Position numbers and translations under genes: made by a program. From positions 25,434 to 89,433 of the forward strand of contig JBBILZ010000001.1 of NCBI GenBank assembly GCA_037444665.1: a stretch of DNA of 64,000 nucleotides. Direction: 5' to 3'. The notes under the pieces were generated by a model. The model saw nothing but the letters and a program-made list of their open reading frames with translations. It did not search any database and had not been told where the DNA came from. How positions within the stretch are numbered: position 1 is the first letter of the stretch; every line of letters starts with the position of its first letter. This stretch comes from a candidate division WOR-3 bacterium (GTDB lineage: Bacteria > Hydrothermota > Tepidihabitantia > SM23-42 > JAOAFX01). Shown one piece after another: positions 5,332-62,826 of this stretch.

Positions 5332-5372
5332 TTATAATTCAGGTATTCAGGCATTTTTGATTTTCAGGTTGT

Positions 5373-6419
5373 TTACTTTTCTCCATACCGATAATATGCA
5401 GCACAAGACCCTTCAGATGAAACCATACAGGCACCAACTGGACTGCCCGGAGTACACTTTTTGCCAAATAGTGGGCACTCGTGTGGAATCTTTAGCCCTA
5501 ACAAGACCTTACCACAGATACAACCCTTTGGCTTTTGCACCTCAGGAATTTTAATATCATATTTTTTTGTAGCATCAAATCGCTGATACAATTTTTTTAA
5601 TGTAAGTCCAGATTCAGGGATAATACCAATCCCGCGCCATTGCGAATCCACTGGCTCAAATACTCTATCAAGCAATTTTAAGGCAGTTGTATTACCTTCG
5701 GGTTTGACCACCCGGTTATATTCAATCTCTATATACGCCTGGTTTTTGCATATCTGCTCAACCAAATTTTTAATCCCTAATAGTATATCAATCGGTTCAA
5801 AACCTGTAATACAACCAGGTATGTGATATTTTTCTGCAATCAAGGTGTATGGTTTTGAGCCAATAATCGTTGAAACATGTCCGGGCAAAATAAAACCATT
5901 GACATTGAGCCGGGGCGATTGAGCAATAAATTCCAGGGCAGGCGGAATAATTTTGAACGCAGGAATTATATAAAAATTTTTGATATCTTTTTTTTCAGCC
6001 TCAAGAATGGTTGCGGCGACTGTGGGCGATGTGGTTTCAAAACCTACGCCGATAAATACTACATCTTTGTGTAAATTGTCCTGAGCAATAGCCAGCGCAT
6101 CCATTGGCGAATAAATAATCTTTGGATGATAAATTTCAAGGCTACCTTGCGAACCGGGCACACGCACCATATCACCGAATGTCGTAATTATCACATTTTT
6201 TTGCCGGGCAAGTTCTATGGTCCAATCAATAATGTTTTGTGGTGTTACACAGACCGGGCAACCAGGTCCAGAAAGGAGTTTTAAATTCTTCGGCATCATC
6301 TTTCTTATACCTGCACGGGCAATTGCCATGGTGTGCGTTCCACAAACCTCCATCAGAGCAATAGGTTTCTTTACATTATTCCTAATCTGCCTGACAATTT
6401 CTTCAACTGGATTTTTCAT
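5373..6419 (-). CDS. hypD: [NiFe]-hydrogenase maturation factor HypD
   Basis: 348 aa with the HypD motifs EVCGTHT and GPGCPVCVTP, and a C-terminal Fe-S CxxC...CxxC region ending CMVSSEGSCAAY. Confidence 0.85.
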   Translation of the reverse strand: MKNPVEEIVRQIRNNVKKPIALMEVCGTHTMAIARAGIRKMMPKNLKLLSGPGCPVCVTPQNIIDWTIELARQKNVIITTFGDMVRVPGSQGSLEIYHPKIIYSPMDALAIAQDNLHKDVVFIGVGFETTSPTVAATILEAEKKDIKNFYIIPAFKIIPPALEFIAQSPRLNVNGFILPGHVSTIIGSKPYTLIAEKYHIPGCITGFEPIDILLGIKNLVEQICKNQAYIEIEYNRVVKPEGNTTALKLLDRVFEPVDSQWRGIGIIPESGLTLKKLYQRFDATKKYDIKIPEVQKPKGCICGKVLLGLKIPHECPLFGKKCTPGSPVGACMVSSEGSCAAYYRYGEK

Positions 6420-14067: not shown

Positions 14068-14664
14068 TCAAAATCTACCGAATTTAAAGGTCAGATGGCA
14101 CGCTCCATTGCTTAATGCTTTATCACTGATACCATCAAGGTCAGTGCCATAGATATAGCGATATGAACCACCAAGGTCAATACGAAAACATCTTGTAACA
14201 TTTAAGGTCAATTCAGCACCGGGTTCAAATACAAAAACAGCATCGTCATACCAGGGTTCAAAATAATCCGTGCGGTAACATATATCACCTCCACCGATTA
14301 ATGAACTGATGCCAAAGTGAATCATCCTGCGTGAGCCAAATATCCATTCTAAGATCAAACCTCCATAACCAAAATCCATATAATAATCCCTTAATGGATA
14401 ATCTGTATGCACCACGACCCTGTTCACAAGGCCATATCCACCACCACCAATGGCAAATGTATGATTCAAAACGATTGCTCCACGACCACCAAAAAAACAA
14501 GCAAAATCATTATTCAGTTCAGTAAATTTTATGACCGGACCACCAAATATGCCTTTCTCTACAGGACCCTTAATTAGAACCTCGTCCTGTTTCTCTCTGG
14601 GCACAATCTCAACCGCACCAAACCCATAATAATTGAGCAATATAAATCCCAATATCAGATTCAT
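14068..14664 (-). CDS. putative outer-membrane beta-barrel protein (hypothetical)
   Basis: 198 aa with a signal peptide, Gly/aromatic-rich beta pattern and a C-terminal ...FKFGRF ending in Phe. Strong AAAGGAGG ribosome-binding site. Confidence 0.5.
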   Translation of the reverse strand: MNLILGFILLNYYGFGAVEIVPREKQDEVLIKGPVEKGIFGGPVIKFTELNNDFACFFGGRGAIVLNHTFAIGGGGYGLVNRVVVHTDYPLRDYYMDFGYGGLILEWIFGSRRMIHFGISSLIGGGDICYRTDYFEPWYDDAVFVFEPGAELTLNVTRCFRIDLGGSYRYIYGTDLDGISDKALSNGACHLTFKFGRF

Positions 14665-14775
14665 TATACCTCCTTTTAAGGTTAAATCCTACCATAATAA
14701 AAGGCAAAATCTGTGCCAGTCTTTTACTTGAAATTTCGTGCTAAAGTATGGTGCAGTTGTTCAAAAATTGTAATA

Positions 14776-14794
14776 TCTGCACAATTTTTGTGCA
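14776..14794. promoter_or_regulatory. candidate operator: 17-nt perfect palindrome TGCACAATTTTTGTGCA (18/19 nt with flanks) inside the -35/-10 spacer of the 14664 gene
   Basis: Seen in sequence. The core is identical to the 19-nt palindrome ATGCACAATTTTTGTGCAT at 35815..35833. On the minus strand it sits between TTGATG (-35-like) and TATTAC (-10-like), 17 nt apart. Confidence 0.45.
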
Positions 14795-14831
14795 TCAAAA
14801 TATTTGGTTGACAAAATATGTGGAAAAATTG

Positions 14832-22191: not shown

Positions 22192-22205
22192 ATCCTCTCA
22201 ACTCC

Positions 22206-22226
22206 TTACTACTTACTACCTACTAT
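22206..22226. repeat. TAC-tract repeat fragment (ttactacttactacctactat)
   Basis: Same motif as in the A, B and 57.66 kb copies. Overlaps the stop of the 22216..23097 gene and supplies the AAGGAG ribosome-binding site of NTPase B on the minus strand. Confidence 0.5.
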
Positions 22227-23097
22227 CCTTCTCTATCGCCATATATCCATAATAAGTCCCTTCACCTTCTTCATCATCAGGTATCCAGATTGCCTGTTTT
22301 TTATCTGTGGTTGCATCAAATGTTGCAACATATAGATGAATAGATTTCTGAGTGAATTCAGATTTTTTAAAAAGATACAAAAGATAAGCAAGTTCTACCC
22401 TTGAAAATTCACGATAGTTCTCTTTCCTGGGGTCAATAAAAAACTGCGGTGGTTGTTGTAAGAACACATACTCATCCAATACATCTACGAGAAGCACCTT
22501 TTCTCCATACGGTCGATTCAACAGGTTCAACCTTCTTTTGTATGCACTTTCAAGGTCAAGATAAAATTCCTTTGGGTCAAATTTTTTCTTTTTCAATTCT
22601 TCGTCAAATTTTTTTATAGTCTGATAGACTGTTTCCGGTTCAAGAGGGATTTTGGACTTTAATTTCTCAATCTGTGGTCCAAAATACAGGGCTGCCTCGC
22701 CAAATTCAAAGTTTAAAACAAGGGTATAAAAACCGACTCTTAATATTGGATACTGGCCCTTTATTATTCTGTTATCCTGTTGGAAAAGTGTTTTGAGTTT
22801 TTCACCGAATGCAAAGCGAAATTCCTCTTTTGCCTTTTCAACCTCTTTCTTTTCCTGATTGAGCCAGTCAATTAACTGGTTTTTCAAATCAAATTCTGCA
22901 AGGCTATTCGCAATTTTTAAGAGTTCAGAAACTCTTTTCTCCATAATATAGGCATTATCTACTGGACTCTCTTTTAATTTCGCATAGTCGTTTATCAATT
23001 TTGTTATTTTACCTGCTGCCTTTATCAATCCCTTGAATCCTTCTACAATCTCTTTCATTAGCAGCAATATAATAACCAAAAATATACCCGATGTCAA
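22216..23097 (-). CDS. hypothetical protein, first gene of the NTPase A/B operon
   Basis: 293 aa with no motif I recognise. A short hydrophobic N-terminus is followed by K/E-rich helical regions. Co-directional and close to NTPases B and A. Confidence 0.5.
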   Translation of the reverse strand: MTSGIFLVIILLLMKEIVEGFKGLIKAAGKITKLINDYAKLKESPVDNAYIMEKRVSELLKIANSLAEFDLKNQLIDWLNQEKKEVEKAKEEFRFAFGEKLKTLFQQDNRIIKGQYPILRVGFYTLVLNFEFGEAALYFGPQIEKLKSKIPLEPETVYQTIKKFDEELKKKKFDPKEFYLDLESAYKRRLNLLNRPYGEKVLLVDVLDEYVFLQQPPQFFIDPRKENYREFSRVELAYLLYLFKKSEFTQKSIHLYVATFDATTDKKQAIWIPDDEEGEGTYYGYMAIEKDSR

Positions 23098-27045: not shown

Positions 27046-27258
27046 TTGAAGACTCGTGTGAGACTTGAATATGCAAAATCTCTTTACGAACTTGGGAAAG
27101 TATACCTAACTTGTCGTGAAACGTGGAACGTGAAAGGTAAAACGGCGAAAAAGGCGTTACAATATTTAAAAGAAGCAGAAAAGATTTTCAAAAAAGCAGG
27201 TGCTGAATTGTGGTTGAAGAAAACCAGCGACTTAATAAATCAATTACCCAATTATTAA
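27046..27258 (+). other. orphaned C-terminal module of TPR paralog 1, same frame and separated by a single in-frame stop
   Basis: The 70-aa ORF VRLEYAKSLYELGKVYL...AGAELWLKK matches the C-terminus of paralog 3 (LELAKSLYELGKVYL...AGAELWLKK). Its frame is identical to 25864..27027. Confidence 0.5.
27073..27221 (+). repeat. ~149-bp direct repeat, copy 1 (3' module of the TPR paralogs), about 85-90% identical to 29999..30148
   Basis: Aligned by eye: gcaaaatctctttacgaacttgggaaagtata...gcaggtgctgaattgtggtt. Confidence 0.7.
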
Positions 27259-28722
27259 ATGAAGGTGGATGCAAGAAGAGACCTTTTATTACGTGCATTA
27301 GAAGGAAAGGGTGCGGTTTTAATGTTGATTGGAAAATTTGATGCAGCTGCGAGCCTTTATCATCAATTGGCAAATAAGGGGCAGGATAATCCACTGATCG
27401 TAGCAAGGGCAGAAAGATCAATTGCTGATGTTTACCTGAAACAGGGCAAATACGATGAAGCTCTAAAAATTCTTGAAGGCAAAAAAGAAAATATCATCGG
27501 TGATTCAGAAAGTGGAGCAATTGAAAAGGCGTTAATTCATATATCTAAAGGTGGGGTTTACAGGTATAAAGGAGAATTAAGAAAAGCAACTAAAGAAATA
27601 AACAATGGATTAAAAATCTTATCTTTTATTCACAAAGAAACTAAGTTAAAAAAGAGATTTATTATCAAAAAAGCGCAGGCAACCGCCTTCAATAACCTGG
27701 CTTCAATTTCTCTGCTTAAAGGTAATTATAAAAAAGCAATAAAATTGTATAACAAATCATTGAAAATAATAAAAGATTTAAACGAAAAACAGGCAATTGG
27801 AACAACAAACGGTAATCTGGGCCTAATTTTTTTGGATAAAGGCGAATATTCAAAGGCAATTAATCTATTTATGAACCATATAAAAATATCAAAAATGATT
27901 GGTGATAAACGAGGCCTTAGTTTGGCAATTGGGAATTTAGGTTTGGTCTATGAAAATATGGGCAATTATAATAAGGCGATTGGGTTATTTACCAGATATC
28001 TTAAAATCGCTCAAGAGTTAGGAGATGAGCGTGGGATAGGGACTGCCTGTGGTAATTTAGGGCTGGCGTATAGAGACAAACAACAATATTCTGAAGCAAT
28101 TAAATTTCTCTTAAAAGATTTGGTCATTTCCGAAAAAATAGGCGACAGATACGGTTCCGGTATCTCTTGCTTAAATCTGGCTTTTGCTTATCTGGAAAAA
28201 GATAGTTTTAATGATGCAAAAAAATATTTATTCAGATCATTTAAAATATTTAAGAATATGGGTGATACATTTGATATGATTTATGTTAATCTGGGTTTAG
28301 CACTGTTAGGTTTATTGAAAATTAAAATGGGAACTGCGTCGCGACTTAGTATTGGGAAAACATTAAAATTTATTAAAAACGCACTAAAAACTGCAAAGGA
28401 GATGAATTCTAAAACAGCAATAGCAGATTGTTATTTTATATTTGCAAAAGCATATGTAGCCATTTCCAACTTCAAAAATGCTCAAATATATTTTAAAAAA
28501 GCCATCAAATATTTCAATAATCTGAAGTCAAAAAGGATGCTCGCTGATTCATACTTTGAATACGCAAAAATGCTAAAAAACTGGGAATCACCGAGACTTG
28601 AAGGTACCAGGAAATTTGAACAAAATTTAAAAAGGGCATTAAAGATATATAATGAATTAAGCTTGCCACAAAAAATCAAAGAAGTAAAAAAAGTAATGGA
28701 ACAAAACTTTGCTAATGATTAA
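27259..28722 (+). CDS. TPR-repeat protein, paralog 2
   Basis: 487 aa. N-terminus RRDLLLRALEGKGAVLMLIGKFDAA is homologous to paralogs 1 and 3, and the body is many TPR units. The TAAATG junction with the preceding ORF suggests coupling. Confidence 0.7.
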   Translation: MKVDARRDLLLRALEGKGAVLMLIGKFDAAASLYHQLANKGQDNPLIVARAERSIADVYLKQGKYDEALKILEGKKENIIGDSESGAIEKALIHISKGGVYRYKGELRKATKEINNGLKILSFIHKETKLKKRFIIKKAQATAFNNLASISLLKGNYKKAIKLYNKSLKIIKDLNEKQAIGTTNGNLGLIFLDKGEYSKAINLFMNHIKISKMIGDKRGLSLAIGNLGLVYENMGNYNKAIGLFTRYLKIAQELGDERGIGTACGNLGLAYRDKQQYSEAIKFLLKDLVISEKIGDRYGSGISCLNLAFAYLEKDSFNDAKKYLFRSFKIFKNMGDTFDMIYVNLGLALLGLLKIKMGTASRLSIGKTLKFIKNALKTAKEMNSKTAIADCYFIFAKAYVAISNFKNAQIYFKKAIKYFNNLKSKRMLADSYFEYAKMLKNWESPRLEGTRKFEQNLKRALKIYNELSLPQKIKEVKKVMEQNFAND

Positions 28723-30169
28723 AACCGGAAATTTAAGAAAACAGTTGCTAATCGACGCATTAGAAGGAAGAGCCAATGTATATAGACTTATAGGCGAATA
28801 CGATGAAGCAATACAAGACTATCAGAAGGCTATATTCTGGTGTAAAAAGGGAACAAAACCAGACTCCCTTTTAATAGCAAATCTAATAATTCACCTTGCT
28901 GACATCTTTCGAGAAGGCAAAAATGATTATGATAAGTCAGCGATGCTTATTAAAAAATTATTTAACAGGATGAGTAAAAAAAATAAAAATGCGCTTTATC
29001 CACTCGGTTTAAATATCCTTGGTATTATTCTCACCCACAGAGGAAGGTATAAACAAGCACTGGAATATCATAAAAAGGCACTCAGTATTAATAAAAAATT
29101 AAAGGACAAAACAGAAACAGGGAAAACATATTTGGTTATTGGAGACATTTATTATTATACAGGTGACTTCACAAATGCATTGAAATACTACAAAAAATCG
29201 GCTACAATATTAAAAACAACAGGCAATAAAACCAATCTTGATATAGCTTATAATAATATCGGTTCTATTTATTATGACCAGGGTAAATCTTTTATGGCGT
29301 TAAAATATTACAAAAGATCTCTTAACATATCTGAAAAGATAGAATCCAAACTTGATATTGGCGTTACTTGTGGCAATATTGGAACAGTATATCATAGTAT
29401 AGGCAACCTTGATATTGCCTTGAAATATTATGAGAAATCTATTAACATATTAAAGCAGATTGATTATAAAATAGGAATTACCACAGGTTACAACAACCTT
29501 GGTGCTGCATATTACGATAAAGGTAGATTCCATACCGCATTGAGATACTATAGAAAATCTTTAAGTACATTTCAGGAGATAGGTTATTATTTGGGGATTG
29601 GACTCGTTTATTTGAAGATGGGTCAGGCTTATACAGGATTAAGAAATTTCAGCCGAGCGGATAAATATCTTAAATTAGCAGAAAAAATATTTATGGGGAA
29701 TCCCAATAAAAAAATTCTATCAAAAATTTATATAGGTTTCTCGGAATTATACTACGGAAAAAAAGATTACGAAGGTGCATTTAAACATGCAAACAAGGCA
29801 CTCTCTTTAACAAGAGAAACAAAAATAATAGAACAGAAGATTTCGGCATTAAGACTAATGGGGAAGGCAATAAAGTGCCTGACGCATAATACAGGGCACA
29901 CGATGCAGGATAAAGCAATACCATCCACTAAAAAAGCGATTTCTTATCTTGAAGAATCAATTGCCCTTGCGCGGAGATACAATATGAAACTGGAACTTGC
30001 AAAATCTCTTTACGAACTTGGGAAAGTATATTTACCTTCTCGTGAAACGGAAAATGCGAAAGGCGAAACGGAGAAAAAGGCGTTACGATATTTAAAAGAA
30101 GCAGCAGAAATTTTCAAAAAAGCAGGTGCTGAATTGTGGTTAAAGAAAGTAAAAAACTTAATCGCTTAA
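28709..30169 (+). CDS. TPR-repeat protein, paralog 3
   Basis: 486 aa. N-terminus RKQLLIDALEGRANVYRLIGEYDEA and a C-terminal module shared with the paralog-1 tail. Overlaps the end of paralog 2. Confidence 0.7.
   Translation: MLMIKTGNLRKQLLIDALEGRANVYRLIGEYDEAIQDYQKAIFWCKKGTKPDSLLIANLIIHLADIFREGKNDYDKSAMLIKKLFNRMSKKNKNALYPLGLNILGIILTHRGRYKQALEYHKKALSINKKLKDKTETGKTYLVIGDIYYYTGDFTNALKYYKKSATILKTTGNKTNLDIAYNNIGSIYYDQGKSFMALKYYKRSLNISEKIESKLDIGVTCGNIGTVYHSIGNLDIALKYYEKSINILKQIDYKIGITTGYNNLGAAYYDKGRFHTALRYYRKSLSTFQEIGYYLGIGLVYLKMGQAYTGLRNFSRADKYLKLAEKIFMGNPNKKILSKIYIGFSELYYGKKDYEGAFKHANKALSLTRETKIIEQKISALRLMGKAIKCLTHNTGHTMQDKAIPSTKKAISYLEESIALARRYNMKLELAKSLYELGKVYLPSRETENAKGETEKKALRYLKEAAEIFKKAGAELWLKKVKNLIA
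29999..30148 (+). repeat. ~149-bp direct repeat, copy 2
   Basis: See 27073..27221. Confidence 0.7.
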
Positions 30170-30263
30170 TTATTATCAGAAACCCAGTAATAAATAAACT
30201 AAAATATATAAAAAGTAAAATGATATTCATACAGAATAGAGTTAAGCTTAATTCTTTACATTA

Positions 30264-34192: not shown

Positions 34193-34843
34193 TTATTCTA
34201 AGTGATAGTCAGTGAGACTGAACTCACCATTACTATTCTTGAATCTAACCAGACCTATACCCGGTGCATAGTATTCTTCTAAATATATCTGTTGGGAAAT
34301 AGTTGAATCTGGTGTCGCAACAGACTCAGATATTGAGATAATAACCTTATAGACCTCGCCATAGAGTTCATCATCTTGATAGTCTGAAACCAATCCCTCT
34401 ATCAAATATCTTGCCTTTATCCATTCACCAAAAAAATCAAGTGAATCTGAAAGCGAATCAATGAATCTATTTCCAGTGACCAATGGCAGTTCAAGTCTGG
34501 TAATATAACCCTGTAAAATTGTATAAATAGAGCCACCATAATTGTGCGTTATCTCTATATATTCTTTGATGCCTTTGATATCCTTAGAAAAATAATGGAA
34601 TTCACCAGAAGCATTGAAAGGATAAACTTCCCTTTGTAATAATGTATCCACTGGTTCAACTGTAATACTCACAATCTCGGGTTTGTATAAATCATTATTT
34701 GCGTATCGCCACCAATTCCCTTCTTTTACTGGAAAGTATTCACTGCCCGAACGCTCAATAATATTATTCTTGCAGGAATTAGAAGAGATTATTATTATAC
34801 ACACTAAAACAGTTCTTATCAGCAATTTAAAATTCATAACCAA
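34193..34843 (-). CDS. hypothetical lipoprotein
   Basis: 216 aa, signal peptide ending ...ISSNSC. No recognisable domain. Confidence 0.5.
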   Translation of the reverse strand: MVMNFKLLIRTVLVCIIIISSNSCKNNIIERSGSEYFPVKEGNWWRYANNDLYKPEIVSITVEPVDTLLQREVYPFNASGEFHYFSKDIKGIKEYIEITHNYGGSIYTILQGYITRLELPLVTGNRFIDSLSDSLDFFGEWIKARYLIEGLVSDYQDDELYGEVYKVIISISESVATPDSTISQQIYLEEYYAPGIGLVRFKNSNGEFSLTDYHLE

Positions 34844-35291
34844 TCCCTAAATTTATGCCCAGGCTACCAGCTTGGGCTTTAAAATCAGTTATACCACTGT
34901 AATAGAACATAGGATAGATATTCAGTGCCTCATAATGGAAATTTATGAGAAAACCGATTGTGTAATTGAATCCTATACCCCACTCCTTATTTTTGTTCAA
35001 TGTTCTTGATACATAGCCACCACCAAATTCTAAGAATGGTGATATGCGCCAGTTCATTTTTTTTATCAAAAGTGTAACACCATAGTTACTAAAAGAATAT
35101 CCCGGATTCTTTCCCTGATAATAAGAACCAAACAGCCCGAGGTCTAAATAGACATTATGATTTAAATCTTCTTTACCGATAAATGCTTTAAAAGATAGAC
35201 CGTTGTTCAACTCATTATCAAGCCCGATGATTGGTTGATTAAAACCTGCCTCAACACCTGCATGTATACTCAATATTACAATCAATAACAT
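34827..35291 (-). CDS. small outer-membrane beta-barrel protein (hypothetical)
   Basis: 154 aa. Signal peptide, alternating aromatic/Gly pattern and a terminal ...GIGYEF. Confidence 0.5.
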   Translation of the reverse strand: MLLIVILSIHAGVEAGFNQPIIGLDNELNNGLSFKAFIGKEDLNHNVYLDLGLFGSYYQGKNPGYSFSNYGVTLLIKKMNWRISPFLEFGGGYVSRTLNKNKEWGIGFNYTIGFLINFHYEALNIYPMFYYSGITDFKAQAGSLGINLGIGYEF

Positions 35292-35400
35292 ACTAAATAA
35301 TAACTAAAAAAAAATAAAAGTCAAGAGAAAATGCACAGATAAATTTTTAGAGCTTTTCCTGAAAATGTAGTGTAGGGCTTTATGCACGTGAAATAAAGGA

Positions 35401-35458
35401 TATCAAGATATCAGAATATCAGAGGGAAGGGCATCAGGGTAGCAGGGTATCAGAGTAT
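35401..35458. repeat. intergenic repeat copy C, module 1 ((TATCA/CAGGGTA)n-like tract)
   Basis: tatcaagatatcagaatatcagagggaagggcatcagggtagcagggtatcagagtat. Related to cagtatcgagtatccagtatcaagg in copy A. Confidence 0.45.
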
Positions 35459-35519
35459 TTAATTGTATTGTAGTTTCAGTACATTTCACCACGCAACATT
35501 ACGGACTAAATTCTAAGCA

Positions 35520-35700
35520 CTAAAAGAATCGTTTATCAGTTTATCCGCCAAACTGTATGGCGGACGAAAATCGCTTCGGTTAGGTTTTTGTAGTCGTTCA
35601 ACGACAAACGACACCGTTAGACGAAACGCATCTCTAAACCGACAAACGTTTAACGATTTACGTGGGTAACTGAGATTTAAATATTGGTGTGGATTATGTT
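35520..35700 (-). ncRNA. candidate structured RNA (unclassified), a GC-richer island in an AT-rich divergent intergenic region
   Basis: Locally higher GC and several short stems (ccgccaaactgtatggcgg, cgtttatcag...cgtttaacga, repeated gacgaaa/acgacaaacg). The only ORF is a weak 77-aa one on the minus strand. Strand and boundaries are guesses. Confidence 0.2.
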
Positions 35701-35728
35701 CCCCGATTCCTCCTGATTCCATTTCAGC

Positions 35729-35766
35729 ATTTAGGTATTTAGGCATTTTGGACTTTTAGGCATTTT
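35729..35766. repeat. intergenic repeat copy C, module 2 (tttaggcattttggacttttaggcatttt)
   Basis: 29/29 identical to 62664..62692 in copy B. Confidence 0.6.
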
Positions 35767-35814
35767 ATTTTATAAGTCATGGTCATTTAAGTTTACCGCA
35801 CAAGTTTTAGTATA

Positions 35815-35833
35815 TATGCACAATTTTTGTGCA
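35815..35833. promoter_or_regulatory. candidate operator: 19-nt perfect palindrome ATGCACAATTTTTGTGCAT about 80 nt upstream of the FN3-lipoprotein operon
   Basis: Core identical to 14776..14794. Confidence 0.45.
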
Positions 35834-35911
35834 TTATTTATGAAAAACTCCCGAAATTTCAAGGCTTTAACCTGGCACAGGATTTGCATATTATATTGGC
35901 AGAGGTGCCAA

Positions 35912-36682
35912 ATGAAAAGAATAAAAGATTCCCTTCAATTGATTCTGGTCGCATCCGGGCTAATTTTTTCGCCCTGCTGTTATGAAGAAGCAGACAATGA
36001 GCCACCTGCAGTTCCCAGAGGTTTGAATTCCATTACTGGTGACGAACAAGTGATGCTCACCTGGTATCAGAATACTGAACCTGACCTTGCTGGTTATAGG
36101 GTCTTTCGCAGTCCTGCACCAGAAGGACCTTATTATCTTATCGGTGAAACAAACTTAGATTATTTCCTTGATTATGGTTTAATGAACGGACAAACCTATT
36201 TCTATGCAATCTCTGCTTATGACATACATAATAACGAAAGTGAACTTTCTTATGAGACGGTCTATGATACACCCAGACCCGAAGGATTTGATGAAAAAAT
36301 CTTTGATTATACTGAATACCCTGCGTATGCTGGTTGGGACTTCAGCAATTATACAGTAGTTCCATACAATTATTCAAACTGTGATTTTTATTTTGGTTAT
36401 GACGATTACAATAATTCTTATTATTTCTTCATTGGTAAGCCCGGTGGATTGATTCAGGATATGGGTTATACCTATTCTTTTGATGAGATTGGTTATGCGC
36501 CTGATGATGGTTGGTCTCCAACCGGCATTGCACAAGCCATTGAAGGCCATACCTATGTTATCTGGACCTGGGACAACCATTTTGCCAAAGTCCGTATCAC
36601 ATCAATAAAATCTGATTATGTCGTGTTTGACTGGGCATACCAGGTTGACCCGGGTAACCCGGAACTGGTGAGGAAAAAATGA
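35912..36682 (+). CDS. secreted or lipoprotein-like protein with a fibronectin type III domain
   Basis: Start set at MKRIKDSLQLILVASGLIFSPCC, which has an AGAGGTG ribosome-binding site. The ORF track starts at 35816, inside the operator. FN3-like segment PPAVPRGLNS...LTWYQNTEPDLAGYRVFRS...TYFYAISAYD. Confidence 0.55.
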   Translation: MKRIKDSLQLILVASGLIFSPCCYEEADNEPPAVPRGLNSITGDEQVMLTWYQNTEPDLAGYRVFRSPAPEGPYYLIGETNLDYFLDYGLMNGQTYFYAISAYDIHNNESELSYETVYDTPRPEGFDEKIFDYTEYPAYAGWDFSNYTVVPYNYSNCDFYFGYDDYNNSYYFFIGKPGGLIQDMGYTYSFDEIGYAPDDGWSPTGIAQAIEGHTYVIWTWDNHFAKVRITSIKSDYVVFDWAYQVDPGNPELVRKK

Positions 36683-36723
36683 AAAATAATCTGCATTTTT
36701 GCAGAGCAACAAAGGAGGTTAAA

Positions 36724-37698
36724 ATGAAACGCTTATTTTTACTCACCCTTGCCGCAATCCCACTATTTGCATTCAGTGTCAATTTCATCTACTGCGATTA
36801 TGATTATGATGATGACTACTGGAACGATGAATACTGGTATCCTGAACCCGATTATTATGATGACTACTGGGTCTATTACCCACATGGCTATTATTGTGTT
36901 TACTATGTGTGGTACCATCCCTGGTGGTGGGATTGGTATTGGTGGCATTGCCATTGGTGCCACCATTTTGACTGGCACTTTTTCCGTGCTGGTTTCTATG
37001 TTGTCTGGTATGAAGACGGATGCTGGTGGTTCAGACCGAGATATGGCAGGTGGGTACGATACAAAGTTCCCTATGCCTATAATGAATTCAGATATAAAGC
37101 AAGGTCCTATGGAGTCAATCTTCCAGAAAAGCCCACAAGGGAAATTAATATTCCTTATAATGAAAAAGAGATTCAACGCCTGACAAAAGAAAAGGACCCA
37201 CAACTATATGCACGCATAGAAAAAGAGTACAGGTCAGGGAACCTGGACAGAATGAAGCAAGAATACGAAACAAAAGTAAAAAGAGAAATTGCAGTGAAGA
37301 ATGAAGAATACAGAAAAACAAAATTACAAAACCCGGCTGATGAACGATATAATACAGGCAAGGATGTAAATAATAAAACAATTGACCGAAGAAAATCTGA
37401 TTCTTATAATGATGATAGGCAAAAGTCAGATTATAATGAGTCAAGAATAATAAAGAAGTCTAAAAATGTGCCTGACAATGATACTGAAACTCCTGAAAGA
37501 TATGACGAATCTGATAATAGAAAATACGAGCAAAAAAAGAATTACACAGCACCAGACAAGTCTAAACAAACTGAACGCGGAGACGAATACAACGCACCAA
37601 AAACTCCAAAAACACCAATCAGAAACCTACCCCCACCTGACCAGGAACAGGAAAAAAGAACGGTTAAAAAACAGAGTGTGCAAAAATCAAGGAGATAA
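36724..37698 (+). CDS. secreted Trp/Tyr/His/Asp-rich low-complexity protein with a Lys/Glu/Arg-rich C-terminal tail (novel)
   Basis: Start at MKRLFLLTLAAIPLFAFS with an AAGGAGG ribosome-binding site. The ORF track starts at 36679, which overlaps the upstream stop in an ATGA. About 100 residues with roughly 16 Trp, 28 Tyr, 7 His and 4 Cys (e.g. YHPWWWDWYWWHCHWCHHFDWHFF). An antisense ORF exists but lacks these supports. Confidence 0.55.
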   Translation: MKRLFLLTLAAIPLFAFSVNFIYCDYDYDDDYWNDEYWYPEPDYYDDYWVYYPHGYYCVYYVWYHPWWWDWYWWHCHWCHHFDWHFFRAGFYVVWYEDGCWWFRPRYGRWVRYKVPYAYNEFRYKARSYGVNLPEKPTREINIPYNEKEIQRLTKEKDPQLYARIEKEYRSGNLDRMKQEYETKVKREIAVKNEEYRKTKLQNPADERYNTGKDVNNKTIDRRKSDSYNDDRQKSDYNESRIIKKSKNVPDNDTETPERYDESDNRKYEQKKNYTAPDKSKQTERGDEYNAPKTPKTPIRNLPPPDQEQEKRTVKKQSVQKSRR

Positions 37699-37700
37699 AA

Positions 37701-38348
37701 ATGTTCACCACCATATTTTTCTTAATCATCAGCATAAATACAGAAACAGTTGCGATGACTACTCCGGACAATTCATTAAATATTGAGAGCTGGCTTAATA
37801 AAGACGAACCCGTATATGTCCCTGGTGAACGACTGAAAATCTTCTTTAAGGTGGATAAGGACTGCTATGTCGCAGTCTATGATATTGATGTTGGGGGAAG
37901 GGAAAATCTTCTCTTCCCCCAGCAAGGGGACAATGGATTTGTTCAGGCAAATAAGGTCTATGAACTACCCCCTGCAGATGCAGATTTTGATTATGAGATA
38001 ACCGGCCCTGAAGGCATAGAAAAAATTATTATTCTTGCCTCAATTAAAGAATTGCCTGACCTTGCTGATACCATAGAAGTATCAAAAAGAGAAATTGAGC
38101 TATCCATTGAAGAACCAGAGCCAGCAAAACTGAGAATTATCTCAACACCTCCCAAATCCAGGATCTATATCAAAGAAGTAATGACTGGCGAGCGTGTTTA
38201 TGTCGGAAAAACACCACGGACCATTGTCTTAAAGCCTGGCGAATATATTGTGGAGATAAAAAAATTAGGGTATCAGACCATTAAAAGGCGAATCTGGCTT
38301 GAGCCGGAAGAAAAAAGAAGGATCTATGTTAGTCTATGGCCCTGGTAA
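37701..38348 (+). CDS. secreted protein with a DUF4384-like domain and a C-terminal PEGA domain
   Basis: 215 aa. Signal peptide, VYVPGERLKIFFKVDKDCYVAVYDIDVGG (DUF4384-like, from memory) and a PEGA-like IISTPPKSRIYI...GKTPRTIVLKPGEYIVEIKKLGY. Starts 3 nt after the upstream stop. Confidence 0.45.
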   Translation: MFTTIFFLIISINTETVAMTTPDNSLNIESWLNKDEPVYVPGERLKIFFKVDKDCYVAVYDIDVGGRENLLFPQQGDNGFVQANKVYELPPADADFDYEITGPEGIEKIIILASIKELPDLADTIEVSKREIELSIEEPEPAKLRIISTPPKSRIYIKEVMTGERVYVGKTPRTIVLKPGEYIVEIKKLGYQTIKRRIWLEPEEKRRIYVSLWPW

Positions 38349-38390
38349 TCTTGACAAACCAATTATATTTTATATAATTGAGGAGTTAAA

Positions 38391-38759
38391 ATGAATAGAA
38401 TATTCTTAAGCATTATCTTTATTCTCGGTAGTTTATGGGCAGTGAAACCTGTGCCCAGAATTGAAAAAACAGATGAAGACAAAAAACCTGTTATACAGAT
38501 TCAGATTCCTGATGAGAATAAAGAGGACCAAAAAGAACAGAATAATAATTCTTTAGAGACTAACAAACCAAAGAACCAGAATAATAAAAATGACCAGTTC
38601 ATTGATAGTGACTCAAATAATGTAAATGACCAGCGTGAAAATGACCTGTTAAAGATAAAACAATTGAAAAACAAATTTAAGGACCTCTTCAAAAAAGATA
38701 GCGACACAGATAGAAAACCCAAAGAACCAGTAAAAACAAAGAAATCTGTTAAAAAATAG
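38391..38759 (+). CDS. secreted Lys/Asn/Gln/Asp-rich low-complexity protein
   Basis: 122 aa. Signal peptide followed by a KNQDE-rich, probably disordered, polypeptide. Confidence 0.4.
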   Translation: MNRIFLSIIFILGSLWAVKPVPRIEKTDEDKKPVIQIQIPDENKEDQKEQNNNSLETNKPKNQNNKNDQFIDSDSNNVNDQRENDLLKIKQLKNKFKDLFKKDSDTDRKPKEPVKTKKSVKK

Positions 38760-39450
38760 TTGATGTGTATTCCTTCAATATGATGCTGTTTTTACCCGAA
38801 GAAGTTAAAAGTTTCACAAAGCGGTGGGGAAAATTTTTTTCAATATAAAAATAGAATTTTATACTCGTAAATACTACGCGCGGCTTCATCATTATCTTCC
38901 AGCATTCAAAAATACCAACAGGTGTTGTTACACTATCTTCACCAATCACCTCTAAATCAGCATTCACTATCATAAATTCAGGCACGAGTAATCTTATCCT
39001 TTTTTTAAAATCTTTACTATAGGTAAAACCCCTTAATACAAAGTCAAGTGTATGTCGGTCATATACCGGCGCACTCTCTTTATAAAAACTCTTTCTGCCC
39101 TGATAATTGACTTCAATAATATGATCTTTTTTAACACTCAACTCCCATTTTCCTTTTATGATTTTATTTAGATAGATTGTCTGTAGATTTACTGGGTCAA
39201 GGATTGTTTCCACTGTGCGGTCTGAAATATATGTAATACGATAGCCAGCACTGTCCCTTTCTGATTTTACTTCTATCTTACCAATCTTTCCCTTATCATT
39301 TGTCTCATAAACAATATATTCGCTATCAGGCAATAGAGATTCACCAGCAAAAAGATAAAACGATAATAAAAAAAATATACAAAAAGCATACTTTGAAAAA
39401 TTGTTAGCAGAAACAGTTGTGTGAAATCTCACAATCTTAAGACTTTGCAC
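38749..39450 (-). CDS. hypothetical exported protein (possibly DUF3108-like)
   Basis: 233 aa, hydrophobic N-terminus and beta-rich. The family guess is weak. Confidence 0.4.
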   Translation of the reverse strand: MQSLKIVRFHTTVSANNFSKYAFCIFFLLSFYLFAGESLLPDSEYIVYETNDKGKIGKIEVKSERDSAGYRITYISDRTVETILDPVNLQTIYLNKIIKGKWELSVKKDHIIEVNYQGRKSFYKESAPVYDRHTLDFVLRGFTYSKDFKKRIRLLVPEFMIVNADLEVIGEDSVTTPVGIFECWKIMMKPRVVFTSIKFYFYIEKNFPHRFVKLLTSSGKNSIILKEYTSTIF

Positions 39451-45194: not shown

Positions 45195-46289
45195 TTATTT
45201 AATCAATATTATTTTATTGAACGAATAAGCATCTGAAATCTTAAAAAAATACACACCATTCGGTAACCTTGACAGGTCAATATGATTGATTGGCTCTGCC
45301 AATACTGTTTTTTTGATAATTCTACCAGAGCAATCAAAAATATATATTCTTGCCCCAGCACTTGCCTTATGTAGTAATAAATTCCCATTTGTTATTGTTG
45401 GTTGCATTGAACTTTTTGTTATTTTATGGCACACCTCTTCCAGAGCAACAAGTGGACCAAAATAGATAGAACCAGCAGAACCATCTTCTCCATTACCAAA
45501 ACCACCATTACCACCTATTCCACCTGCAACTGATAAAGATAAATAGTTTGTATCCAAGACTGAATAAAAGATCTTAATACGGCCACCTCCAGCACCACCG
45601 CCACCGCCACCTGAGGCATCACCGCCTGCTCCTCCCTTTGCAAAGATTGACGAATATCTAATGGTCAATGTATCGGTCCACATTTTAATGCCACCGCCTG
45701 AACCACCACCACCTGCTTCATAACCTCCATCATAGCCACGCATTCCATTGGCTGACACTGCAGAAGAGTCTATGATTATTTTGTTTCCTTTTAAATAGAT
45801 AAGTGCTCCGCCATTACCACCAAAACCATCCACATATGAGAGCCTTCCAGCACCACCACCTGAACCCGGATTGATAACAGTATCATTTGGACTCCCATAC
45901 GAAATCCCACCAGCACCCGGGCTTACATCACCTCCAGCACCACCAGCCCCTCCATAACCAGCACCACCGCCACCACCACTGATTCCTGCGTGGCCATATC
46001 CGGGTCCATATCCATCAGGATGGGTATTCGTGCCTCCGAGATAACCAAAGCCATCTCCTTGAATAACAGAGGAATTATGAATATGTATCAGGGGTGCCTG
46101 CAAAATGACCTTGCCCGTTGAATCAATACCATTCCAGAGCCTTACTTTTAATTTGGCATTGTTCAGATGAACTTTTATATTATATTGATGAAGGTTGCAC
46201 ATCACAAGACTATCATTGACAATTAACAGACTGTCATTGTCTTCATAAATGTAATTGATTAATATAAAAACTCCTAATAATATACCCAT
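45195..46289 (-). CDS. glycine-rich secreted protein with a T9SS C-terminal sorting domain
   Basis: 364 aa with long GGxGG tracts. C-terminal PNGVYFFKISDAYSFNKIILIK resembles the T9SS CTD. Confidence 0.55.
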   Translation of the reverse strand: MGILLGVFILINYIYEDNDSLLIVNDSLVMCNLHQYNIKVHLNNAKLKVRLWNGIDSTGKVILQAPLIHIHNSSVIQGDGFGYLGGTNTHPDGYGPGYGHAGISGGGGGAGYGGAGGAGGDVSPGAGGISYGSPNDTVINPGSGGGAGRLSYVDGFGGNGGALIYLKGNKIIIDSSAVSANGMRGYDGGYEAGGGGSGGGIKMWTDTLTIRYSSIFAKGGAGGDASGGGGGGAGGGRIKIFYSVLDTNYLSLSVAGGIGGNGGFGNGEDGSAGSIYFGPLVALEEVCHKITKSSMQPTITNGNLLLHKASAGARIYIFDCSGRIIKKTVLAEPINHIDLSRLPNGVYFFKISDAYSFNKIILIK

Positions 46290-57600: not shown

Positions 57601-58127
57601 TAAGAAAATCGCCCTATCATTTTATTCGTGGTATCATTCCTTTTGCAGTATTCCCCTATTTTCACTTACTACTTACTACTTACTACCTACTACTTACTAA
57701 CTGCTGCGGTTACTCCACCCGTTCATTATTACCTGGATATATTAAAAAGGTCCATATAAAAATCTTTGAAAACCAGACCCTTAAGCCTGGGTTGGATGAA
57801 ATAGCAACCCAGACGACGACTGAAGCATTTCGCAATAATTCAGGTTTGAAAATTGTCAGTGAAGATGAAGCTGATATTGTTGTCAGTGGCAAAATAACTG
57901 GTTTTTCAAAAGACCCTTATGTATATACTGGTGCCCTTGATGTTTCACAATATAAAATTACTGTCAAATTCTCGGTTACCTGTTTTGATCAGGTGAAGAA
58001 TACAATCTACTGGCAAGGTGATATTTCAGATTGGGCAATTTATACTACTGATGAAGATGCAAGTATCAAAGAAGCAACCAAAAGAGCTGCGGAAAGGCTC
58101 GTAACAACTATTTTAACTAACTGGTAA
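57597..58127 (+). CDS. LptE-like LPS-assembly lipoprotein
   Basis: 176 aa. CGYSTRSLLP resembles LptE CGWHLRD after the lipobox. The hydrophobic N-region FHLLLTTYYLLLT is encoded by the TAC-tract repeat. Start overlaps the upstream stop (ATGA). Confidence 0.4.
   Translation: MIRKSPYHFIRGIIPFAVFPYFHLLLTTYYLLLTNCCGYSTRSLLPGYIKKVHIKIFENQTLKPGLDEIATQTTTEAFRNNSGLKIVSEDEADIVVSGKITGFSKDPYVYTGALDVSQYKITVKFSVTCFDQVKNTIYWQGDISDWAIYTTDEDASIKEATKRAAERLVTTILTNW
57664..57700. repeat. TAC-tract repeat (acttactacttactacttactacctactacttactaa) inside the LptE-like ORF
   Basis: Same family as 7751-7765, 22206-22226 and 62801-62825. Confidence 0.55.
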
Positions 58128-62199: not shown

Positions 62200-62706
62200 T
62201 TATCTGTGTTGAGGACATATTACTGCACCATTTTCAGAATTATATATATATGTCTGCCCGGTCACCGGACAAAATGTTTCCTGAGCACTGATATCATTCA
62301 AGTCTTCAAGTTTTTCTGGATATTTACCATTCTCTGTATAATATATTTGTATTGCCATTTCTATTTTTCGTAGCTGTGCCTGGCACTGTAAAATATTTGC
62401 CCTTTCTGGCGGTGATACTGCAGCCTGATTTTCTCGGCTTCCCCGTGTATATATTATACCGGCTTTATAGACCAGTACTGCTACAATAATCAGTGCAATG
62501 ATGAGCACAAGAAATGCATAAGTCCTCGCTATTCCTCTTTTCACAATGGTGATTATAAACAATTTATCATAAATGTCAATTATTGATTTAGCTGAGGTCT
62601 CTCCACTATTCTGATTTATCTTTCCAATTGTAGTTGCCCGATTTATCGGGCGTAGATTAATTTTTAGGCATTTTGGACTTTTAGGCATTTTAATTTTACA
62701 GGGCAT
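62200..62706 (-). CDS. hypothetical membrane protein with a pseudopilin-like segment (start uncertain)
   Basis: A TM helix YAFLVLIIALIIVAVLV, then LRKIEMAIQIYYTENGKYPEKLEDL resembling the GspG/T4-pilin conserved region. The 5' 70 nt of the called ORF lie in repeat copy B, so the true start is probably the internal GTG at ...VKRGIARTYAF. Confidence 0.35.
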   Translation of the reverse strand: MPCKIKMPKSPKCLKINLRPINRATTIGKINQNSGETSAKSIIDIYDKLFIITIVKRGIARTYAFLVLIIALIIVAVLVYKAGIIYTRGSRENQAAVSPPERANILQCQAQLRKIEMAIQIYYTENGKYPEKLEDLNDISAQETFCPVTGQTYIYNSENGAVICPQHR

Positions 62707-62826
62707 AGATACCGGTATGGTTATTGGGCATGGTCTATTTAGTCTTTTTGGTCTATTTTGTTTCTCTGGTCTTTCTGTTTCTGTTATTTTCTACATACTA
62801 CTTACTACCTACTACCTACTCATCCA
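62634..62826. repeat. intergenic modular repeat element, copy B
   Basis: Hairpin gcccgatttatcgggc, tttaggcattttggacttttaggcatttt, agggcatag, ccggtatggttattgg, ggtctatttagtcttttt and a TAC tract. See copy A. Confidence 0.6.

Follow-up and report, generated by a model that had tools for sequence, protein, structure and literature searches.

A conserved envelope gene cluster of candidate division WOR-3 bacteria with a predicted enhancer-dependent sigma-54 promoter

Four genes encoding predicted exported proteins lie side by side on the plus strand of a 64-kb stretch of DNA from a candidate division WOR-3 bacterium (contig JBBILZ010000001.1; the whole stretch of 64,000 nucleotides (nt) is referred to below as the window; G+C content ~37%). 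They encode a lipoprotein with a fibronectin type III (FN3) fold, an aromatic-rich protein, a DUF4384 and PEGA protein, and a small protein rich in lysine, asparagine and glutamine. The four genes are interpreted here as a conserved WOR-3 envelope gene cluster that would be driven by an enhancer-dependent sigma-54 promoter, a reading to which we assign a probability of about 0.6. The original prediction had described the same genes as one operon under a palindromic operator.

The palindrome that the original prediction had placed ahead of the genes is exact. It occupies positions 35816-35834 and consists of the 19-nt dyad ATGCACAATTTTTGTGCAT, i.e., ATGCACAA-TTT-TTGTGCAT (TGCACAA-N3-TTGTGCA). 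The window contains two copies of this dyad, the second with one mismatch, versus 0.04 expected by chance. A perfect sigma-54 (-24/-12) promoter, TGGCACAGGATTTGC, follows on the plus strand at 35873-35887, 38 nt 3' of the dyad and 24 nt before the ATG of gene 1. Exact TGGCAC-N5-TTGC has just two matches in the 64 kb, this one and another at 14704-14718 on the minus strand. Between dyad and promoter, 9 nt upstream of the -24 box, lies an A/T palindromic element, CGAAATTTCAAG (TGAAATTTCA type; 35852-35863, plus strand), which possibly serves as a DNA bend or as a second protein site. The element is kept as (C/T)GAAATTTCA or GTAATTTCA in an alignment of 56 promoter sequences, where the order of elements is a first dyad, often a second dyad ~21 nt downstream, the TGAAATTTCA-type element, CTGGCAC-N5-TTGCAT, GCAGAGGTG and the ATG. 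The gene 1 promoter of the window is the single-dyad version of this arrangement, with the ribosome-binding site GCAGAGGTG at 35899-35907 (plus strand); GCAGAGGTG or GTAGAGGTG is kept before the ATG at nearly all WOR-3 loci.

Conservation upstream of gene 1 in the relatives is confined to the last ~110 nt. At the start of gene 1, 37 of 84 non-redundant loci contain an exact TGGCA[CT]-N5-TTGC, compared with a background of 0.0011 for comparable spans of 210 nt. The promoter is also found in Calditrichota, KSB1, Eisenbacteria and Ignavibacteria, and sigma-54 control of gene 1 is therefore likely to be old. The dyad, as TGCACA-N5-TGTGCA, is kept upstream of gene 1 in WOR-3 and Hydrothermota at 38-39, 48-50 or 59-60 nt from the promoter. 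Its half-sites are invariant and lack compensatory changes, a pattern to be expected of DNA that is bound by a protein. This invariance, together with the recurrence of the element upstream of promoters, led to the rejection of an intrinsic terminator as an explanation of the palindrome. Across the 56 promoter sequences, the architecture of dyad and promoter is kept before different genes.

In E. coli, the NtrC box TGCACCAnnnTGGTGCA is a 17-bp dyad with GCAnnA/TnnTGC as its most conserved core (PMC8743547). The dyad of the window matches this box at 15 of 17 positions, with one difference per half-site and the core intact. Genes with Sigma54_activat and HTH_8 domains are located directly upstream of gene 1 in an Ignavibacterium (L046), a member of the Hydrothermota (L049) and Eisenbacteria (L074 and L075). 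The Ignavibacterium activator additionally has a receiver domain, while at the Hydrothermota locus the dyad and the promoter sit between the activator gene and gene 1. A GAF-PAS protein encoded upstream of gene 1 at a further locus (L002) is interrupted by a masked stretch of N and escaped classification. Because the NtrC core is kept, activator genes adjoin gene 1 in relatives and the dyad recurs at fixed spacing before other envelope-protein genes, the palindrome is most likely an enhancer, that is, a docking site for an activator of the NtrC family. A repressor operator is not the best reading of an element that is followed by a perfect sigma-54 promoter, recurs together with that promoter and has activator genes upstream in four relatives. 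Sigma-54 needs an activator, and a dyad placed upstream at helically phased distances is typical of an enhancer, not of an operator overlapping its promoter.

A second copy of the regulatory module is present on the minus strand of the window at 14704-14795, comprising a dyad (14777-14795), CGAAATTTCAAG (14727-14738) and the promoter TGGCACAGATTTTGC (14704-14718). The 12-mer CGAAATTTCAAG is identical in both modules and stands exactly 9 nt before both sigma-54 promoters. In the second module the gap between dyad and promoter measures 58-59 nt and exceeds that at gene 1 by two helical turns. Behind the second module, 14068-14664 (minus strand) encodes a glycine-rich protein of 198 amino acids (aa) that ends in phenylalanine, like an outer-membrane beta-barrel. 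Homologues of this protein stand behind the same dyad and promoter at two metagenome loci (L102 and L107), and the protein is a predicted co-regulated member of a regulon. One metagenome scan for dyad plus sigma-54 promoter yielded 46 loci, about half of them gene 1. The remaining loci encode the barrel-like protein, a protein with DUF6982 (Pfam E 3e-26), a secreted protein of 340-380 aa with a glycine-rich, barrel-like C-terminus and, in one case, a 90-aa open reading frame (ORF) judged Hsp20-like by eye, for which Pfam gave no match at E<=0.1. Since the same enhancer and promoter precede other, mostly exported proteins, the cluster would be one arm of a signal-induced regulon for envelope remodelling or stress. 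Sigma-54 regulons in general centre on the cell exterior (PMC3162934).

The ORF list bears out four co-directional genes on the plus strand. Start codons were placed using orthologue alignments and ribosome-binding sites. Gene 1 (35912-36682, 256 aa) starts with MKRIK...; its longest ORF runs from 35816, a start rejected because that ATG falls within the palindrome and the longer ORF would contain the promoter. Gene 2 (36724-37698, 324 aa; longest ORF from 36679) starts with MKRLF..., and AAGGAGG stands ahead of its ATG. Gene 3 (37701-38348) encodes 215 aa and gene 4 (38391-38759) 122 aa. With these conserved starts the intergenic gaps are 41, 2 and 42 nt; the values given originally were 40, 3 and 42 nt. 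The gap of 2 nt between genes 2 and 3 is the same in the relatives checked, and the distance from gene 1 to gene 2 can be as short as 1 nt or as long as 314 nt.

The check on synteny in related genomes that had been suggested was carried out, and the gene order holds. Three complete WOR-3 genomes (CP070664, CP070795 and CP070834) preserve the order 1-2-3-4, and so do, as far as their contigs reach, all WOR-3 loci with a gene 1 identity of at least 62%, corresponding to ~23 species-level genomes. Synteny and signal-like N-termini thus support a conserved, co-inherited module of exported proteins. In some WOR-3 lineages an extra ORF of ~90-100 aa lies between genes 1 and 2 (L003 5697-5999, L013, L014, L019-L021 and L023). 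Its product (...ELIPKMLAVGRSRGTPDFE...KIPSxEY...) has no Pfam match, and locus L026 holds an internal-deletion remnant of it; the lineage of the window is without this ORF. A hairpin in the gap between genes 1 and 2 (36690-36705) was discarded as a regulatory element, as it is unconserved and the gap length varies. Terminator-like hairpins within gene 2 fall in TGG/CCA-rich coding sequence and were treated as chance.

Tight spacing and conserved order are consistent with an operon for genes 1 to 3. The claim of a single four-gene operon is only partly right, because gene 4 has its own conserved sigma-70-type promoter. This promoter, TTGACA-16-TATAAT, lies on the plus strand at 38351-38378 within the 42-nt gap between genes 3 and 4 and matches the consensus at 12 of 12 positions. 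Among WOR-3 loci its -35 box is exact in 23 of 23 and its -10 box in 22 of 23, and the -35 box often overlaps the stop codon of gene 3. Nine perfect TTGACA-N16-18-TATAAT promoters occur in the window, compared with 0.185 in shuffled sequences (30264, 38351, 49525 and 58184 on the plus strand; 62579, 62181, 49496, 46331 and 43106 on the minus strand). All nine are upstream of genes, from which it follows that the organism uses this consensus. They come with short leaders. Judged by these sequence features, the transcription unit is best described as a putative sigma-54 operon that comprises genes 1-3, with gene 4 under a promoter of its own.

All four proteins have hydrophobic, signal-like N-termini that are conserved in orthologues. 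The assignment of signal peptides to all of them thus holds with a reservation for gene 3, which is without a basic n-region and whose signal is putative. In gene 1, Cys22 is invariant in 50 sequences within a lipobox of consensus L-x-G-C, and the protein is therefore regarded as a lipoprotein; the lipobox of the window protein, F-S-P-C, is atypical and common to its close relatives. Acidic residues directly follow the lipid-modified cysteine, presumably resembling the surface-export signal of Bacteroidota. Gene 1 has no Pfam family at E<=1 and no match in the NCBIfam search, and a precomputed PF00041 match is recorded for one of the 120 homologues listed. The FN3 domain originally assigned to gene 1 is thus not recovered by a Pfam fn3 match, whereas structure supports it. 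An alignment-based AlphaFold model is confident (pLDDT 89.7), and its N-terminal domain superimposes on solved FN3 domains as a seven-stranded beta-sandwich. The lists of fold matches for gene 1 are taken up by FN3 domains.

The C-terminal domain of gene 1, a predicted beta-sandwich of ~125 residues, is very conserved and contains the motifs IQDxGY, YAPxxGWS, GHTYxxWTxDNHFAKxR and FDWAYQ as well as the invariant residues H213, H223, D158, D183 and D221. Weak Pfam HmuY (PF14064) matches were obtained for 3 of 19 such domains, the best with E 0.0011; they are below threshold, and the window protein is not among them. Neither sequence nor profile searches of the PDB found a significant relative of this domain, and HmuY was not recovered.

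Gene 1 has 1999 homologues and is distributed across the FCB group, far more widely than the other cluster genes. At least 578 species genomes contain relatives of it, from WOR-3, TA06, Hydrothermota, Ignavibacteria, Calditrichota, KSB1, Zixibacteria and Eisenbacteria; the closest loci belong to metagenome-assembled genomes (MAGs) of WOR-3 and 'Stahlbacteria'. Outside the main WOR-3 clade, gene 1 is followed by one of three types of partner, usually by a protein with a charged tail that has DUF4384 or is aromatic or His/Cys-rich. The first type (320-530 aa) combines DUF4384 with a middle part that is aromatic or rich in His and Cys and with a basic tail. The second is a Trp-rich protein with FecR, DUF6600 and a charged tail, and the third, in most Ignavibacteria, an unrelated secreted protein of ~150 aa. 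In a Calditrichaeota MAG (L004 1-5182) and a KSB1 MAG (L005 4839-5225), a gene 1 homologue lies just 3' of flagellar genes (flagellin, FlaG, FliD, FliS; FlgN). This neighbourhood may be a coincidence or reflect shared sigma-54 control.

Gene 2 encodes a predicted secreted protein, and its description as rich in tryptophan and tyrosine is borne out: W, Y, F and H make up 50% of residues 23-130, and the N-terminal part is acidic and aromatic. Invariant W, Y, C, P and G columns extend to about residue 175 and are followed by a variable, disordered tail rich in K, E, R and D. The structural model is confident for residues 80-200 only, where it consists of helices and one hairpin; it gave no fold match, and the protein has no Pfam family. 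PDB sequence searches returned nothing significant for gene 2 or gene 3. Among 1.84 billion proteins, 18 representatives were found at E<=0.001, and all homologues come from candidate division WOR-3 MAGs. By these searches, gene 2 represents an orphan family restricted to WOR-3. One homologue is labelled 'DUF3300' in UniRef, which Pfam does not bear out.

With the partners of gene 1 in other phyla, gene 2 shares a short motif. CxxCH, mostly as CYDCH, occurs in the gene 1 partners of KSB1, Hydrothermus, Eisenbacteria and Chlorobiota-labelled MAGs, several DUF4384 partners among them. A comparison of the gene 2 profile with single partner proteins by hhalign (Hydrothermia L006, KSB1 and Calditrichaeota) detected no homology, while against a partner alignment it aligned only the 14-column CxxCH motif (probability 41%, E 2.9e-4). 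Homology of gene 2 to DUF6600 proteins or to the middle regions of DUF4384 proteins is not claimed, as only this short motif was aligned. The origin of genes 2 and 3 by fission of one DUF4384 partner protein would be an attractive, if hypothetical, scenario.

Gene 3 contains both domains that had been assigned to it, each above its Pfam gathering score. DUF4384 (PF14326) spans residues 39-114 (71.2 bits, E 7.6e-20; gathering score 27 bits) and PEGA (PF08308) residues 143-212 (40.8 bits, E 2.1e-10; gathering score 20.8 bits). The small predicted secreted protein encoded by gene 4 gives phmmer matches at every syntenic locus. Its mature form consists to 43% of K, N and Q, in agreement with the composition noted originally, and is rich in K, N, Q, D and E overall. 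It contains the conserved motif D-x-D-S-N-G/N-V-N-D-Q-R-E-D, followed by KIKQLKSKFKDL and an amphipathic basic helix. The DxDxNG..D..E pattern of the motif suggests a possible calcium loop of the DxDxDG type. NCBIfam returned only noise for all four proteins.

In the proposed mechanism, an activator of the NtrC family, with an AAA+ domain and a Fis-type helix-turn-helix (HTH), would bind the dyad at 35816-35834 in response to a physiological signal. The A/T palindrome at 35852-35863 would probably aid DNA bending, and the activator would open the sigma-54 promoter at 35873-35887, so that genes 1, 2 and 3 are transcribed as one tightly coupled unit. Gene 4 would probably be expressed constitutively from its own sigma-70 promoter, in addition to read-through. 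The four products would act together in the periplasm, at the outer membrane or on the cell surface, possibly as a physical complex, with the lipoprotein as membrane anchor and conserved core. A signal-induced envelope module with this core is the best-supported role of the cluster, given that export is predicted for all products and for most regulon partners and that sigma-54 regulons generally concern the cell exterior.

Several points weigh against this interpretation. A motif scan of the 64-kb window found neither rpoN nor a sigma-54 activator gene. The centre of the dyad is located ~73 nt upstream of the predicted transcription start, nearer than the classical NtrC sites at -100 to -150. 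Co-transcription, the activity of the gene 4 promoter and mutual binding of the four proteins are features that we infer from the sequence. Finally, 'envelope stress or remodelling' is a category and not a mechanism, and the members of the regulon are without known function.

Export of all products, co-inheritance of the four genes and the acidic residues behind the lipid-modified cysteine of gene 1, similar to the Bacteroidota signal, would also suit the structure envisaged in the original prediction. There, a single four-gene operon, repressed via a palindromic operator, builds an S-layer-like surface or extracellular structure around the aromatic protein. Of the two domains that the original prediction linked to surface assemblies, PEGA was first described in cell-surface proteins (PMC2447325). 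In the published mentions found, DUF4384 is fused to caspase-like proteases, Ser/Thr kinases or Csx30, mainly to the proteases and kinases and not to S-layer proteins. Repression is at odds with a dyad that stands, helically phased and enhancer-like, upstream of an activator-dependent sigma-54 promoter, and a single operon with the separate promoter of gene 4. By searches of Pfam, NCBIfam and the PDB, no part of the cluster is similar to known S-layer proteins or to machinery for secretion or assembly, and neither Pfam nor NCBIfam detected S-layer families or an anchoring domain such as SLH in any of the four proteins. The scheme in its entirety is considered unlikely; a surface-array role of the cluster as such is possible.

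The cysteine and histidine residues of gene 2 suggest a different function. They form the cluster HCHWCHH, in which C76 and W78 are invariant, as is the more distant C58, and H80 is present in 46 of 48 members. Position 79 is Cys in 37 of 48, His in 6 and V or A in 5, and CxxCH is formed in 36 of 48 homologues. The exchange of C79 for His is typical of metal ligands. The cluster could accordingly be a metal or haem module of the envelope, with a Cys/His cluster of gene 2 that binds a metal or haem in Trp-rich surroundings, an HmuY-like gene 1 and a calcium-binding gene 4, induced in a metal or redox response of the ZraSR-ZraP kind. The presence of CxxCH in gene 1 partners of other phyla, its alignment by hhalign as an isolated motif, the His-rich nature of other gene 1 partners, the weak HmuY matches and invariant His and Asp residues of the gene 1 C-terminal domain, and the DxDxNG-type motif of gene 4 all fit this proposal. 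However, 11 homologues have H, V or A in place of the second Cys of CxxCH, contrary to the pattern of covalent haem c, and C58 and C76 may simply form a disulfide. Neither genes for cytochrome c maturation nor a further CxxCH protein occur in the window, the HmuY match is marginal and was not reproduced by the PDB profile search, and the cluster loci have no linked TonB-dependent receptor or metal transporter. Such a module is rather improbable, and a metal or haem role in the wider sense is possible but not strongly supported.

A broader version of this idea, which we regard as quite improbable, combines gene 1 and its variable partner (here genes 2 and 3) into a previously unrecognised envelope system of the FCB group. 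Under a dedicated sigma-54 activator, this system would pair an HmuY-like FN3 lipoprotein with an aromatic, Cys/His-rich protein whose conserved [WY]-C-x-x-C-H site lies in Trp-rich surroundings, and the pair would bind haem or a redox-active metal. If true, it would represent a new type of carrier for haem or metal, or an electron-transfer protein with a fold not known from cytochromes. Nitrogen control, with the dyad as a genuine NtrC site and a cluster that scavenges surface nitrogen compounds under nitrogen limitation, is highly improbable: the dyad does agree closely with the NtrC box, and at two loci (L001 and L003) glnA is encoded on the opposite strand, two to three genes upstream, but at these loci an exact sigma-54 promoter stands at gene 1 alone and none precedes glnA, similar half-sites are common to many NtrC-family activators, and the targets of the metagenome scan are outer-membrane-like, DUF6982 or secreted proteins, with no nitrogen-metabolism gene among them.

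Further elements were noted in the surroundings of the cluster. For the 'GC-richer candidate RNA' reported upstream of the genes, Rfam gave no match, neither in the whole window at gathering thresholds nor in 35250-35920 at E<=1, and the stretch at 35530-35725 is not conserved in the relatives fetched. On the plus strand it folds no better than shuffled sequences (z -0.54); on the minus strand its folding is modestly better (z -2.46), with 3 of 200 shuffles as good. A 34-nt repeat, TTTAGGCATTTTGGACTTTTAGGCATTTTA, probably the 'repeat copy C' of the original prediction, is present in three copies of 76-97% identity (5346-5379, 35738-35771 and 62663-62696). Each copy coincides with, or closely precedes, the start of an ORF on the minus strand, and the repeat may act on that strand as a common promoter or leader element. 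The minus-strand genes flanking the cluster (34827-35291, 34193-34843 and 38749-39450) look envelope-like too. They encode a barrel-like protein of 154 aa ending in phenylalanine, a 216-aa protein with an SNSC lipobox and a weakly DUF3108-like protein, whose gene shares 11 nt at its 3' end with the end of gene 4.

Repetitive sequences occur elsewhere in the window. Heptamer-like repeat runs (TTACTAC/TTACTACC) are found at three intergenic places (22192-22238, 57652-57712 and 62788-62820). A 188-nt sequence is present twice with 84% identity, 2.9 kb apart (27059-27246 and 29985-30172), and its copies surround neighbouring genes of ~487 aa (27259-28722 and 28709-30169). Degenerate repeats rich in CCACC and GCCACC (45584-45995) lie inside the minus-strand gene 45195-46289 and would encode a Gly-rich repetitive protein.

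Almost nothing is known of gene regulation in uncultured WOR-3 bacteria and their relatives. Comparison of sequences alone recovers a complete enhancer-promoter architecture and a first predicted sigma-54 regulon for them, which provides targets for binding assays and metatranscriptomics, and the organism uses textbook consensus sequences for both sigma-70 and sigma-54 promoters. Two of the proteins are good candidates for structural and biochemical work. The gene 1 family is ~50% identical across phyla and its C-terminal domain is absent from Pfam, while gene 2, an orphan protein with half aromatic residues, is of interest for work on the FCB envelope.

The regulatory scheme is of a known kind, whereas the targets and one protein family are new. 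A close parallel is formed by NtrC-activated sigma-54 promoters of the E. coli glnAp2 type, with which the window shares the -24/-12 sequence TGGCAC-N5-TTGC and an upstream 17-bp dyad with a GCAnnA-N3-TnnTGC core, often doubled, with about two helical turns separating the dyads. Activators with AAA+ and Fis-type HTH domains are likewise encoded beside the target, here in relatives of the window organism. In contrast to glnAp2, the half-site is TGCACAA instead of TGCACCA, the enhancer is much closer, with its centre at about -73 to -95, and an extra conserved TGAAATTTCA element is located at about -45. Furthermore, the targets are exported proteins and not nitrogen-assimilation genes.

In the PspF/psp and ZraSR/ZraP systems of E. 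coli, a dedicated sigma-54 activator induces a few envelope-located proteins, ZraP being His-rich and periplasmic. The regulon predicted here also comprises mostly exported proteins, but the cluster has no sequence relation to PspA-E or ZraP, and its lipoprotein core is conserved across phyla. The Rrp2-RpoN-RpoS pathway of Borrelia, in which an activator of the NtrC family and sigma-54 govern envelope lipoproteins indirectly through RpoS, resembles the predicted control of an envelope lipoprotein by the same pair of factors; it differs in that the lipoprotein gene itself carries the -24/-12 promoter here.

At the protein level, gene 1 resembles the HmuY lipoproteins of Bacteroidota (PF14064) in being an FCB-group lipoprotein with an all-beta C-terminal domain and two invariant His residues. 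Unlike in HmuY, an FN3 domain precedes this domain, no TonB-dependent receptor adjoins the gene, and the two His residues are 10 residues apart, compared with ~32 in HmuY. Gene 3, finally, is a bona fide member of both the DUF4384 and the PEGA family, and differs from other such proteins in being small, stand-alone, exported and genetically tied to the FN3 lipoprotein.

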